In this document: positions 3,001 to 9,000 of the stretch, piece after piece
Numbering within the stretch: position 1 is the stretch's first letter
Layout: every line of letters starts with the position of its first letter
Source: a virus
DNA length: 45,223 bases
UHGV virus genome: UHGV-0196721
Direction: 5' to 3' (one strand)
Made by a program: the position numbers

Positions 3001-6000
3001 ATTTGAGTGGATCAACAAAAGGGCAGCTTGAGGCCTGGCAGGAGAATGCCATGTTTGATACAGGGCGTTACAGGCGTAAAAAAATCCGGTACCGCGATGA
3101 AGTGACTGGAAAAATGATAACGCGGGATAATCCACCAATCCCGGGAAAGCAATCGCTGGCGAAGGGGGTGTCAATTCCTCTCGTCAGTCCGGTTGAGTTT
3201 TCGACATCATCGTGGCGGCGGGCTGTTCTGTCTCTTGAAGAACATCATAAAGCCTGGTTGTTGTGGTGTTACAGCGGGAGTATTTGTTGGGAATATCAGA
3301 TCGCGATAACGCAGTGGGTGTGGAATGAATTTAAAACCCGGTACGGCACCAGAAAAATTGCAGGGAAAACGCAGGAGCGCGTGAAGAAGTTGATCTGGCT
3401 GGCGGCACAGGATGTCAGAGGATGGATTACCGGGTGTGAGGTCTACCAGAGACAGGAGCTTGCCAGACTGTGTGGAGTTAAGCCTGATAACTGGAGCCAT
3501 AATTATGCGAACTACTGGCGTGAGATGTGCGATATTTTTAAGAGTCTCGATAGAGAATCTGTGATTTGCACCGTGAAAATAAGAGCGCAACAAAAAGCGA
3601 CTTTTTCACGACGAGATATTGCAAAAGTCAATTAAATAGCGTATGTTTCGTATAAATCTGATATTTTGCCGATTTTGTACGCGATGGCAAAGTAAGAAAA
3701 AAACTGCCGTCAGGCGGTTTTTTTTTATGCCCAAAATCGCGTCAGTACAGTAAACACGCTGGTGGTTGCGAATACGGGTCTTTCAGCTTGCTGGCTTTTT
3801 CGACAAGAGTTATTGGTATGTCACGTTAACCGGAAAAAGGAAAAAGACATGCTAAAACAGCAGGATATGACAGAAACCGCCAGAGTGGTGTTTAATGAAT
3901 TAAGCGTTACCGAACCGGCGACAGTCGGGGAGATAGCGCAGAATACTTACCTTTCACGCGAACGCTGCCAGTTAATACTGACCCAGCTGGTTATGGCGGG
4001 TCTGGCAGACTATCAGTTCGGTTGTTACAGACGCCTTCAGTCCTGAAGGCTTTTTTATTTGTGGTAAATGGGCGGCTGGTGGGTGTTAGGGGCACCCACC
4101 AGCCATCTGCTCATGCGTTGGGTTCACAAGCAAACCTCAGGCCCACTGCTTTGCGCAAAAGCAGAATGAGCCTATCAGAGACAGGCTTAATGATCCATGC
4201 TTAATACTGTAAAAATATCCAGTTGTGAGCTAATCAACGCCGACTGCCTGGAATTTATCCGGTCGTTACCCGAAAATTCTGTTGACCTGATAGTCACGGA
4301 CCCTCCGTACTTTAAAGTGAAGCCTGAGGGCTGGGATAACCAGTGGAAGGGCGACGATGATTACCTGAAGTGGCTGGACCAGTGTCTGGCGCAGTTCTGG
4401 CGGGTGCTGAAACCTGTCGGAAGTCTTTACCTGTTCTGTGGTCATCGCCTGGCATCTGATATCGAAATCATGATGCGTGAACGCTTCAGTGTGCTGAACC
4501 ATATTATCTGGGCGAAGCCGTCCGGACGCTGGAACGGATGCAACAAGGAAAGCCTGCGGGCGTATTTCCCCGCCACAGAGCGCATTCTGTTCGCGGAACA
4601 TTATCAGGGGCCGTATCGTCCGAAAGATGCCGGGTATGCGGCGAAGGGCAGTGCACTGAAACAGCATGTGATGGCCCCGCTGATTTCTTACTTTCGTGAT
4701 GCGCGCGCTGCCCTGGGGATAACGGCAAAACAGATTGCAGATGCCACAGGAAAGAAAAACATGGTGTCGCACTGGTTCAGTGCCAGTCAGTGGCAGCTAC
4801 CGAACGAAAGCGATTATCTGAAATTACAGTCGCTGTTTGCCCGGGTGGCAGAAGAGAAACATCAGCGCGGTGAACTGGAAAAGCCCCACCACCAGCTGGT
4901 GGATACGTATACGTCACTGAACCGGCAGTATGTGGAGCTGCAGAGTGAATATAAGCATCTGCGGCGGTATTTTGGTGTGACGGCGCAGGTGCCGTACACG
5001 GATGTGTGGACACATAAACCGGTGCAGTTCTATCCCGGGAAACATCCGTGCGAAAAACCGGCAGAAATGCTGCAGCAGATAATCAGCGCAAGCAGTCGTC
5101 CGGGTGACCTGGTTGCAGATTTTTTTATGGGCTCAGGTTCAACGGTAAAAGCGGCACTGGCGCTTGGGCGTCGTGCGATTGGCGTTGAACTGGAGACCGG
5201 ACGTTTTGAGCAGACAGTCAGGGAAGTTCAGGATTTAATCGTTTGAAACGGATGAGATTGCAGAATTAATTACGCACCATTATTATTCTGCTCCCGGCCC
5301 TTTAGCTCAGTGGTGAGAGCGAGCGACTCATAATCGCCAGGTCGCTGGTTCAAATCCAGCAAGGGCCACCATCACATACCGCCATTAGCTCATCAGGAAA
5401 GAGCGCCAGCTTTCGAAGCTGGTTGCGCGGAGTTCGGGTCCCCGAAGGCGGTCCATTATCTGTATCCTGCGTTGTTAGCTCAGCCGGACAGAGCAATTGC
5501 CTTCTAAGCAATCGGTCACTGGTTCGAATCCAGTACAACGCGCCACACTTATTTTCCCTGGCTCGCTTTTGCGGGCTTTTTTTAAATGTCTCACAATTCA
5601 GGCGGTTGACTGTTGTCTGGTTTGCGGGGAGTTTGTTAAAAGAAACTGGCATGGTGAATCCCCCTGTGCGGAGGGGCAATCAGCGAGTAGGTATATGGGA
5701 TAATCGCGGATTCAGGTGCTGGTACTGAATTCACCGGGAGGCACCCGGCACCATGCAATGGCACATAGCGCCACTCTCCAGCCCCTCTCCGGAGGGGCTT
5801 TTCTGTGCCGGATACATCACAGTTTCTGGAACCTTAGGTACTACAGTATCAGTCAGGGTGCTATATTTTCAGATGTGATGAAAGCCTGTCAGCAGGCAGG
5901 GCGTATCGGAAATGACCCAGTAGAGAAAACGTTGACTCAGATACCGGTGCTGAGTTACCGGGAAACCGGCATCACATGACCGCTATCCTTCCAGGCCCAT

Positions 6001-9000
6001 CCGCTCCGGTGGGCCTTTTTACTGCAGAAAACAGGTTCCCCGTTAAATGCTATGTTGCTCACAATTCAGTAAGTTGACAGTTGCCTGTCAGACTGGGCAT
6101 TTGTTAAAAAAATTTCGCATGGTGAATCCCCCTGAGCGGAGGGGCGACTGGTGACGGTATAATCTCTGATTATCAAAACGAGAATGACGCGGGTTTAGTG
6201 GCACCGGGCTGAACTCACCGGGAGGCACCCGGCACCATGTGCATGATGATACAGATACGCGGCTTTAGCCCCTCTCCGGAGGGGCTTTCTTATGGACAAA
6301 AAAAGCCCGCGCTGGGAGACGCGGGCGGCAAGGAATAAACAATAAAACGTGAAGTAATATTTCAGCTGGCGAATAATACCCCATAGTAATCACTCTGCGC
6401 AACTGCGCGGTCTTTTTCGAATTGCGGGCTGTAGTCTCCCTTCTGCCATTGTCCTGTAACTTCCGGACTTCAGCCTGCTCCTTATCTGACTCACAACATT
6501 ATCCCGCCCGGGAGGATTCATGGCATTTAAACACTATGACGTGGTCAGGGCGGCATCGCCGTCAGACCTTGCGAAACGACTGACACAAAAACTGAAGGAG
6601 GGCTGGCAGCCGTTTGGTAGTCCGGTGGCCATAACCCCTTATACCCTGATGCAGGCGATTGCAGCAGAAGGTGATGTGGTCGTCAGTGGTGCAACTGAGC
6701 CGGAGTGGTACTACGTCATCGTACTGGCCGGGCAATCCAATGCCATGGCTTACGGTGAAGGGCTTCCGCTTCCGGATTCATACGATGCGCCCCATCCGCG
6801 CATTAAGCAACTGGCCCGTCGTAACACAGTGACTCCCGGTGGTGAAGTATGCGTATTTAACGACATCATTCCTGCTGACCATTGTCTGCATGATGTTCAG
6901 GATATGAGTACGATTAACCATCCCCGGGCTGACCTGAGCAAAGGGCAGTACGGCTGTGTCGGACAGGGCTTACATATTGCCAAAAAACTGCTTCCGTATA
7001 TCCCTAATAATGCGGGGATCCTGCTGGTACCATGCTGTCGTGGTGGTTCGGCATTCACCCAGGGCACGGAGGGGACATTCAGCGAGTCCACGGGAGCCAG
7101 TCAGGATTCGGCTCGCTGGGGAGTGGGTAAGCCGTTATATCAGGATCTGCTTTTCCGCACGAAGGCAGCATTGCAGAAAAACCCGAAAAACGTTTTGCTG
7201 GCGATATGCTGGATGCAGGGGGAATTCGATATGACGAATGCCAGTTACGCCCAGCAGCCAGCAGCATTTCTTGCAATGGTACAGCAGTTCCGTGCTGACC
7301 TTGCCGGGCTGGCGGCGCAGTGTCACGGTGGAAGTCCGGCATCAGTCCCCTGGATTTGTGGCGACACGACATACGCGTGGAAACAAGAACACGGTACGCA
7401 ATATGAAGTGGTATATGGTGCATATAAAGGTAAAGAATCCCAGCAGATTTATTTTGTTCCCTTTATGACCGATGGTAGCGGAGTTAATACACCGACAAAC
7501 AACCCGTCAGAAGATCCTGATATTGCCGGGTCTGGTTATTACGGTTCGGCATCCCGAACGAACAAAAACTGGGTATCATCAAATCGCCCGACGCATTTCA
7601 GCTCATGGGCGCGTCGTGGCATTATTCCCGATCGTATGGCAACGGCTATTCTGAACGTAGCCGGTCGCACCTTAGCCTTCATTAGTGGTAAGGCACCGGA
7701 AATCAAAGCCTCGCCCGGCGGCGACACGCCATCGGGGCCGTCTGAAGATGCATCCATACGCACAATCTCCCTGTTGCCGACAGCCGGAGACGCTGCTGCG
7801 CAGGGCTGGAGCATTAAGAATGGCGGAATTCAGTTGTCAGATGGTGTATTTAAGATCACCAAGCAGAGCAATAAAGCCTGGTCCCTGACGCGCCCGGTGG
7901 ATGACGCAGTCTCCCTGCTGACACGGGGTGGCAGACTGAGCTGTAAGTTTCGACTGTCAGGCGCACTGACCAACAACCAGTTCGGTCTGGGAATTTATCT
8001 GTATACCGATGTAGCGTTACCTGACGTCGTGGCGATGACCGGGACTGGTAACCCGTTCCTGATGTCGTTCTTCACCCAGACCACAGACGGCAAACTGAAT
8101 CTGATGCATCACAAGAAAGCAGGAAACACAAAGTTGGGCGAGTTCGGGAATTACAGTAACGACTGGCAGACGCTGGAGCTGGTGTTCACCGCCGGCAGTG
8201 CCACGGTTACTCCGAAACTGAATGGAGTGGCTGGCCCGGCATTCCAGGTCATAAAAGACAGTCTGACACTGGGGCTGAATGCGCTGACGCTGACGGATAT
8301 TACCAAAAATGCAGCGTATGGCGTTGAGATAGAAAGTCTGGTGCTGGAGATAAATGCACCGGCATCATCATAAAAAGTGAGCCAGCCAAATGGAAGGTAT
8401 CGTTAAACTCACCGGTAGTGTCAGTGGGTCGTCTGAGATGCCTGCATGAGTTATCAGAGCCATCAGTACTTAACTGGTGGCTTTTTTTATTGTTGTCAGC
8501 TTCCGGATAACGGGAGACGGGGTATGTACCAGATGGAAAAAATCACAACAGGTGTGTCATACACCACGTCAGCGGTGGGAACGGGCTACTGGTTCCTGCA
8601 GTTGCTGGACAGGGTTTCCCCGTCTCAGTGGGCGGCAATAGGCGTGCTGGGGAGTCTGCTGTTTGGGCTGCTGACATATCTGACTAACCTGTATTTCAAA
8701 ATCAGAGAGGACCGTCGTAAGGCTGCACGGGGAGAGTAATTCAATGACTCAAAACTATGAACTGATTGTGAAAGGGATCCGCAATTTTGAGAATAAAGTT
8801 ACGGTAACTTTAGCGTTACGGGACAAAAAACGCTTTGACGGTGAAATTTTTGACCTGGACATCTCGCTGGACCGTGTTGAAGGTGCCGCGCTGGAGTTTT
8901 ATGAGGCAGCAGCCAGAAGGAGCATCAGACAGGTCTTCCTGGATGTTGCTGCCGGGTTATGTGAAGGGGATGAGCAGTCGCCGGAAAAGCGCCCCGTAAT

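Follow-up and report, generated by a model that had tools for sequence, protein, structure and literature searches.

What lies in the kilobase between the tRNA genes and the nanS-p-like esterase gene of the UHGV virus genome UHGV-0196721, a stretch in which no convincing gene can be recognized? The window, i.e. the whole stretch of 45,223 nt that was analysed, is a lambdoid prophage with the order RusA, Q, tR'-like terminator, DNA methylase, three tRNAs, gap, nanS-p, holin and lysozyme. The end of the last tRNA-Arg gene (5545) and the ATG of the esterase gene (6520) are separated by 974 nt. Open reading frames (ORFs) in this gap reach at most 109 amino acids and none of them has a Pfam match, in agreement with the first-pass annotation, which had described about 1 kb without a credible ORF and had placed two tandem structured units in it. 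The gap harbours a cluster of small RNA (sRNA) genes at the moron site, with three head-to-tail members of the STnc100 family, whose products are probably Hfq-dependent, trans-acting sRNAs with swappable cassettes, and a convergent RNA gene. The region belongs to the already known STnc100/EcOnc05-27/PasD family and is ordinary for a lambdoid prophage rather than a novel element.

The two direct copies were recovered where they had been proposed, at 5590-5803 (unit 1) and 6058-6291 (unit 2). They share an 88-nt direct repeat (5590-5677 and 6058-6145; 80% identity), a 31-nt block (5725-5755 and 6209-6239; 97% identity) and identical terminator hairpins (5780-5801 and 6267-6288). Alignment bore out that the conserved blocks enclose a divergent centre and that each unit has a terminator of its own (T-runs follow both hairpins, 5780-5799 and 6267-6286). 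Both units were identified by Rfam as STnc100 (RF02076), far above the gathering score of 47 bits (unit 1: 5620-5810, 136.3 bits; unit 2: 6088-6297, 165.4 bits). In view of the E-values of the two units (7e-31 and 2e-38) and the excess of terminator-like sites (10 in the 1.4-kb region, compared with 1.4 ± 1.2 in shuffled sequences), the repeats are not a product of chance. Our own covariance model (R1), which was built from 21 representatives and used to gather homologues, gave 152 bits for unit 1 and 166.6 bits for unit 2. The suggestion that the units are paired sRNA genes therefore held: both are sRNA genes of the STnc100 family, and close or identical homologues (EcOnc05, EcOnc27, PasD) are Hfq-bound and detected on Northern blots. 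A tRNA-like element was also considered and discarded, ARAGORN and the Rfam tRNA search finding only the three tRNAs at 5296-5545. The cluster comprises the following features:

5590-5648 (+): upstream block of unit 1, with the CTCACAATTCAG motif (5590-5601), TTGACT (5606-5611), TTGTCT (5613-5618) and TGtTAAAAG (5634-5642)

5649-5803 (+): STnc100 copy A (EcOnc05 type; Rfam, R1 and fold), with helices P1 (5649-5656/5749-5756), P2 (5661-5665/5672-5676), P3 (5683-5686/5704-5707), P4 (5708-5715/5725-5732) and P5 (5734-5738/5744-5748), and a 3' module of single-stranded copy-specific cassette (5757-5779), terminator (5780-5799) and U-tail (to 5803)

5859-6020 (+): middle copy, with extended -10 TGcTATATT (5859-5867), RNA at about 5873-6020 and terminator (5993-6016) followed by a T-run

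6043-6116 (+): upstream block of unit 2, with candidate extended -10 TGcTATGTT (6048-6056), CTCACAATTCAG (6058-6069), TTGACA (6074-6079), TTGCCT (6081-6086) and TGtTAAAAA (6102-6110)

6117-6291 (+): STnc100 copy B (EcOnc27/sRNA103 counterpart with another 3' cassette; Rfam, R1 and fold), with helices P1 (6117-6124/6233-6240), P4 (6191-6199/6208-6216) and P5 (6218-6222/6228-6232), and a 3' module of cassette (6241-6266), terminator (6267-6286) and U-tail

6298-6402 (-): convergent RNA gene (EcOnc08/21/42 type), with terminator (6326-6305) followed by T7 (6304-6298)

Folding each in isolation gave a common architecture for unit 1, unit 2 and the middle copy (z-scores of -2.8, -1.6 and -2.7, respectively). 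From 5' to 3', P1 closes over P2 (CCCCC...GGGG), a variable P3, P4 and P5 (CCGGG-AGGCA-CCCGG); P5 abuts the 3' strand of P1, after which 15-28 unpaired, copy-specific nt lead to the terminator. The three hairpins named in the first-pass annotation (ccccctgNgcggagggg, ccgggaggcacccgg and gcccctctccggaggggc, the last followed by a T-run) are real and present in the minimum-free-energy folds; the 8-bp closing helix P1 (GCAUGGUG/CACCAUGC) had been overlooked. Among 82 phage copies (59 distinct), 98.3% of the pair cells were standard and 23 of the 32 pairs showed double changes. A wider Enterobacterales set of 118 copies (114 distinct) from Enterobacter, Citrobacter, Klebsiella, Salmonella, Leclercia, Pantoea, Erwinia, Serratia, Rahnella, Cedecea and other genera was 95.3% paired, with double changes in 29 of the 32 pairs, and controls with slid partners were 33-50% paired. 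The stems covary across homologues, which is the opposite of what had been named as the mark of decayed coding sequence.

The candidate peptides are indeed not conserved, as had been remarked before: the conserved ATGs are the two strands of P1 and are absent from diverged homologues. A small ORF running from the conserved ATG after GGAGG (5753 and 6237) in-frame through the terminator of both units was rejected for the same reason, because diverged homologues retain P1 without an ATG (CACCGCAUC in the dicB leader, CACCAGAC in locus L116 and CACCAUUG in locus L118). Two tertiary or alternative pairings were tried and dropped as well. Kissing between the P2 and P5 loops (GUGC with GCAC) failed on unit 2, L081 and L006, in which the P2 loop is altered without compensation in P5, and the complementarity that would make P2 an antiterminator of the 3' hairpin is not kept with other terminator types.

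Further elements had escaped the first-pass annotation. A third, diverged STnc100-like copy lies between the units (about 5872-6019, +) and keeps all helices with changed letters (P1 AUGUGAUG/CAUCACAU; P2 GCCUG/CAGGC; P4; P5 CCGG-GAAA-CCGG). It scores 30.2 bits with R1 (E 2e-6) and 30.1 bits with the Rfam STnc100 model (5849-6022), the latter value being under the cut-off of 47 and counting as relative only. A variant 85% identical to this copy is conserved in other phages. After unit 2 follows the convergent minus-strand RNA gene. In its 3' 70 nt and its upstream region it matches EcOnc08 and EcOnc21, two peaks of Sakai Sp4 that have a common Northern band of ~271 nt in Sakai. Such a length would put the 5' end of the minus-strand RNA near 6568 and make it antisense to the nanS-p start codon and ribosome-binding site. 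A promoter-like TTGCGC (6402-6397)-18-TATTAT (6378-6373) on the minus strand, which corresponds in position to the mapped AsxR promoter, could yield a form of ~68 nt. The convergent organisation of the cluster is the same as that of the sRNA pairs described at the moron site of enterohaemorrhagic Escherichia coli (EHEC) prophages (PMC4104026).

Outside the cluster, a core-only STnc100 homologue (39415-39572, -) comprising P1-P5 and no terminator fills the spacer between DicF (39591-39642, -; an above-threshold Rfam match) and the dicB start codon. This copy, likewise overlooked before, scores 51 bits with our own model and 38.8 bits with Rfam (a local match under the cut-off, to be read as relative only). 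Its fold has a z-score of -3.1, and P1 and P5 are preserved through compensatory changes. Of 5426 complete E. coli genomes, 4633 have the dicF-dicB spacer. A promoter located upstream of dicB had been suggested in an older study (bioRxiv 10.1101/2023.04.14.536235).

For module typing, 126 phage-borne units were cut at the conserved blocks, which distinguished 31 combinations of 10 upstream, 12 middle, 11 cassette and 6 terminator types. Four-gamete quartets were obtained for upstream/middle (6), upstream/cassette (9) and middle/cassette (1) and point to recombination between modules. The combination of unit 1 is the commonest (36/126) and that of unit 2 occurs in 9/126; the two units are therefore different alleles that were brought together and did not arise by local duplication. 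Arrays are common, with 3-5 copies within ~1.5 kb in loci of Pantoea, Enterobacter, Leclercia, Citrobacter and Superficieibacter, and with four adjacent STnc100 copies and a fifth nearby in L061. The array loci (L187, L200, L202, L197, L157, L166, L132/L168 and L061) include E. coli phage contigs. Array units that abut without a terminator suggest that polycistronic precursors may be formed.

The units had been described as filling the slot in which Shiga toxin (Stx) phages carry stxAB. This applies to unit 1 and the middle copy, which lie where stxAB lies, but not to unit 2, whose counterpart sits 3' of stxB in 933W and Stx1 phages. The order in 933W is tRNAs, terminator, stx2AB, STnc100 (207.7 bits), AsxR (-) and nanS-p; Stx1 phages share this layout, with STnc100 directly 3' of stxB and then nanS-p. 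Since the upstream blocks of unit 2 and the 933W copy are nearly identical, unit 2 is the counterpart of EcOnc27, with which it shares the 933W-type upstream block but not the middle domain, cassette and terminator. The sRNA gene resides beside the toxin slot and is no substitute for the toxin.

At the moron site of eight Sakai prophages, 3' of pR', Tree et al. reported Hfq-binding sRNAs in convergent pairs, and they located EcOnc27 and AsxR 3' of stx2B (PMC4104026). The Sakai Sp4 locus carrying EcOnc05 is identical to unit 1, and the EcOnc05 Northern probe used by these authors is the reverse complement of window positions 5677-5711. EcOnc05 gave a peak in Hfq cross-linking and analysis of cDNA (CRAC) that takes in P3, the cassette and the terminator's 5' half, and its band on Northern blots measures ~222 nt (PMC4104026). 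The EcOnc27 Northern probe corresponds to the cassette of the 933W copy, the EcOnc27 CRAC peak covers its last ~80 nt, and the Rfam STnc100 match of 933W abuts AsxR. EcOnc27 (= sRNA103) is Hfq-bound and visible on Northerns (PMC7873438). The STnc_100 primers used for quantitative PCR on vesicles of Shiga toxin-producing E. coli (PMC12370729) match unit 1 exactly (5650-5669 and 5723-5742). In EDL933, 11 Rfam STnc100 copies are transcribed, one of which, STnc100_4, was confirmed by Northern (PMC5331693). The STnc100 RNAs, including EcOnc05, EcOnc04/06 and EcOnc27, thus occupy the same slot (from the tRNAs or stxB to nanS-p), have a convergent partner and include Hfq-bound homologues; nothing essential is different here, except that three tandem forward copies are present instead of one.

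The same slot, downstream of Q and upstream of the sialate esterase, is taken by PasD2 in enteropathogenic E. coli (EPEC) E2348/69 (PasD1/PasD2; EHEC homologue EcOnc13). Like the units, PasD2 begins with GCAUGGUGAAUCC at its 5' end, has the P1/P2/P4 architecture and carries a cassette followed by a terminator, but it is devoid of the P5 stem and differs in cassette, terminator and upstream block. Its Rfam score against STnc100 is 41 bits, under the cut-off, and a common ancestor of PasD and STnc100 was proposed in a 2026 preprint (Zhu, Shabalina and Storz). Chimeras obtained for PasD1 by ligation and sequencing of interacting RNAs (RIL-seq) fall within the 50 nt at its 3' end, and directly before the terminator stands UGUGAG, which has been proposed as the seed. 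This seed is found in neither unit 1 nor unit 2, whose BLAST similarity to PasD covers only nt 1-40 or so. The heptamer CTCACAA opens both units (5590-5596 and 6058-6064) and recurs 30 nt before the nanS-p ATG (6490-6496, +). In RIL-seq, the PasD seed has CUCACA as its target motif; this motif occurs 8 times window-wide compared with 6.2 expected and is not enriched.

The units are not the anti-sRNAs AgvB or AsxR, to which the first-pass annotation had drawn a link; these are antisense partners at the same site (PMC4104026). No match to RF02702/RF02703 (AgvB/AsxR) was obtained at E up to 1 over 3000-9000 or at gathering score window-wide. This negative is meaningful because the same scan found both RNAs in control loci, each beside STnc100 (AsxR with 88 bits in 933W and AgvB with 96 bits in L024). 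AgvB and AsxR use the same moron site as members of the same convergent sRNA pairs, and their promoter-hairpin and terminator layout resembles that of the minus-strand RNA of the window. However, AgvB and AsxR measure 51-60 nt, are encoded on the opposite strand and differ in sequence and fold, whereas the units are on the sense strand and 155-232 nt long. Antisense orientation to the late operon is seen only for the separate 6298-6402 (-) element and not for the units. StxS and lambda 6S RNA are, like the units, short terminated late-operon RNAs whose terminators are overridden by Q antitermination, but they start at pR' right after Q, whereas the STnc100 units lie 2 kb downstream, past the tRNAs, and belong to a different family.

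The upstream block of unit 1 is either the 5' leader of an RNA of ~212 nt or the promoter of a 155-nt RNA. A promoter directly before P1 is favoured by the 5' end of PasD2, which, according to RNA-seq coverage and the size on Northern blots, is the G of GCAUGG. It is also favoured by 47 distinct upstream sequences, which show a T-rich/TG/TAAAA block at -18 to -7, a G at -1 (46/47) and TTG at -37 to -35; even unrelated upstream sequences still have a -10-like hexamer 5-7 nt before P1 (TACAGT in L118, TGcTATATT in the middle copy). A start ~60 nt higher, near CTCACAATTCAG, i.e. at the unit boundary of the first-pass annotation, is favoured by the Northern sizes of EcOnc05 (~222 nt) and EcOnc27 (~235/247 nt), compared with which the lengths from P1 to the terminator (155 nt and 172 nt, respectively) are ~60 nt shorter, and by the position of the EcOnc13 Northern probe (-45 to -11). 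The Rfam model moreover takes in 29 nt upstream of P1, paired with the cassette region, and this outer helix is seen in long-form folds; the signal of co-adaptation between leader and cassette is weak (-9.6 vs -8.5 kcal/mol, permutation p 0.03). TTAAAT (5582-5587) and TGcTATGTT (6048-6056) are candidates for an upstream -10 element, the former being overlapped by the AAATGT that follows the tRNA-Arg(tct) terminator. We infer candidate 5' ends at ~5592/6062 or 5649/6117. Both starts may be in use, or the short form may be a processing product. A firm start at P1, with Rfam positions 1-29 as promoter DNA, was initially claimed and then withdrawn, because the probes and Northern sizes of Tree et al. 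show longer RNAs for CTCACAATTCAG-type copies.

The position of the start bears on two published observations. It can be conjectured that the reported STnc_100/stxB complementarity (Rfam positions 5-15) lies outside the RNA. In one machine-learning study, haemolytic uraemic syndrome (HUS) was predicted most strongly by variants immediately 3' of stx2B; the two stx2-linked variants are a T/C change at +90 and a T deletion at +103 after stx2B (PMC12711010). Both variants are located in the TTTGTTAAAAAAATTT block directly upstream of P1 (L003 = 933W 3548-3561; L060; L126). Conjecturally, they would hit the TG of a possible extended -10 and its spacer in the case of the short form, and the outer helix, in its leader strand, in the case of the long form.

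We propose that each forward unit is transcribed on its own in the lysogen, from a putative promoter of its own. The RNA would fold into a conserved 5' scaffold, in which P1 encloses P2 to P5, followed by a single-stranded, copy-specific cassette of 15-28 nt, an intrinsic terminator and a U-tail. By analogy with the tested homologues, Hfq would bind the module of cassette and terminator, and the cassette, as the putative seed, would pair in trans with host or prophage mRNAs. A different cassette would confer different targets, and recombination would shuffle cassettes among copies. During lytic growth, Q-modified polymerase from pR' needs to pass the unit terminators to reach nanS-p and the lysis genes; terminators ahead of nanS-p in the late transcript are located at 3706-3718, 4033-4050, 5560-5577, 5780-5799, 5993-6016 and 6267-6286. 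The Hfq-CRAC peaks (EcOnc05, EcOnc27) and the PasD1 chimeras on the 3' module support such a cassette-terminator model. Several points weigh against it. Discrete Hfq-bound expression is known from the literature on homologues only (EcOnc05, which is identical, EcOnc27, STnc100_4 and PasD), and the sole report bearing on targets of STnc100-type RNAs is an increase of fimZ and espA upon sRNA103 overexpression. The Northern sizes, which indicate the long form, disagree with the PasD RNA-seq 5' end at P1. The alignments behind the pair counts were model-fitted, which is a caveat on the covariation, and retrieval by pattern had imposed P5 in the second set as well as part of P1/P2 in the first. Finally, seed pairing explains neither the near-invariance of P2, and of P5 where the pattern left it free, nor the terminator-less, core-only copy in the dicB leader.

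Because the constancy of P2/P5 and the core-only dicB copy are unexplained by the sRNA model, a function centred on the core stays its main rival, unlikely as we judge it to be. According to this explanation, the conserved core P1-P5 is itself functional, as a protein-, ribosome- or ligand-binding domain or as a decoy, the cassettes are secondary and the arrays multiply the sites. The J1/2-P2 segment (AAUCCCCCU..GCGG.GGGG) and UCACCGGGAGGCACCCGG are near-constant from E. coli to Pantoea and Leclercia, in contrast to the free covariation of P1, P3 and P4. Units often form arrays of 3-5, in some cases abutting without terminators, ~43 of 114 copies have no aligned terminator, and a core-only copy stands in the dicF-dicB spacer of the 4633 genomes mentioned above. 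However, the search patterns account in part for how constant P5 is in the second set and P1/P2 in the first, P5 is altered or lost in the middle copy and PasD2, and the Hfq-CRAC peaks and PasD1 chimeras examined fall on the 3' module, with some PasD2 chimeras at the 5' end. It is doubtful that the STnc100 core, with near-invariant P2 and P5 hairpins amid covarying helices, is an autonomous, sequence-constrained Enterobacterales RNA domain that binds a protein, the ribosome or a small molecule apart from seed pairing. If it were, prophages would reuse it in three ways: as an sRNA scaffold with swappable cassettes, in multi-copy arrays and as the terminator-less leader of the cell-division inhibitor gene dicB.

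The chance is slim that the units act in cis as a leader or attenuator of the downstream gene (nanS-p here, dicB elsewhere), in the manner of a riboswitch or a Q-dependent barrier. That each unit places a conserved structured domain with its terminator ahead of nanS-p in the late operon, and that a core copy stands directly upstream of the dicB ribosome-binding site, would fit this reading, but no alternative pairing between core and terminator is conserved, the cross-complementarity of P2 and terminator in units 1 and 2 being lost where the terminator is of another type, as in PasD2 and 933W. Units are also found in arrays and with unrelated downstream DNA, and a convergent RNA gene stands between unit 2 and nanS-p. 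Between the 5' strand of P2 and the ribosome-binding site of nanS-p, pairing reaches -26.3 kcal/mol (shuffles, -18.2 ± 3.7, 12/500 as good); it was rejected as marginal against the shuffles, with the segment buried in P1/P2 and nanS-p variants with another ribosome-binding site lacking the complementarity. The earlier suggestion of Q-dependent late-leader elements is not needed either, as family members occur in arrays and with other or no downstream genes, although read-through of the terminators by late transcription is still required. A reading without RNA function, as decayed coding sequence or as DNA-level recombination linkers that join phage modules, is hardly credible. Cassettes do recombine at the conserved blocks, and the site is a known hot spot of moron exchange; yet 23-29 of the 32 pairs show compensatory changes, there is neither a conserved ORF nor a Pfam match, and homologues give discrete Hfq-bound transcripts. 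Given the covariation, this explanation is close to refuted.

The STnc100 family, whose members we prefer to read as Hfq-dependent sRNAs with exchangeable cassettes, stands beside stx and lysis genes in many pathogenic E. coli. The practical result is one of annotation: the gene-less 1 kb carries three forward sRNA genes and one antisense RNA gene. The prophage stretch is identical in E. coli CE10, avian pathogenic E. coli (APEC) O18 and others, and the RefSeq annotation of the gap in the identical CE10 prophage consists of one pseudo-fragment only. With tandem arrangement being common, interest rests on a widespread, strongly covarying RNA and not on a peculiarity of the window. By-products that can guide experiments are the mosaic of recombining modules, the conserved core with covarying P1/P3/P4 and the core copy in the dicB leader.

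The cluster is flanked by the following features:

2940-3635: antiterminator Q (Pfam Phage_antiter_Q, E 1e-83)

4197-5246: DNA methylase

5296-5545: tRNA-Ile2(cat), tRNA-Arg and tRNA-Arg

5560-5589 (+): terminator of tRNA-Arg(tct), GGCTCGCTTTTGCGGGCT followed by T7, with the same arrangement in Sakai Sp4

6520-8373 (+): nanS-p-like esterase (DUF1737 + SASA + DUF6645), the first late gene downstream of the sRNA cluster

A hairpin followed by T8 is located at 3706-3718 (+), 70 nt past the Q stop codon, and overlaps a weak minus-strand match to STnc370. The segment 3636-3730 is the expected site of pR'/tR' and of a short StxS- or 6S-like late leader RNA, with 3706-3718 as the candidate tR'. Between nanS-p and the holin gene, a PasA/PasC homologue was sought and not found, unlike in EPEC and many Stx phages; this gap (8440-8495, +) carries a hairpin with a T-run (AGCCATCAGTACTTAACTGGTGGCTTTTTTT). 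Other above-threshold Rfam matches in the window were the sok antitoxin RNA of the hok/sok locus (761-936, +) and an ALIL pseudoknot, an IS3-type frameshift element (11647-11746, -).

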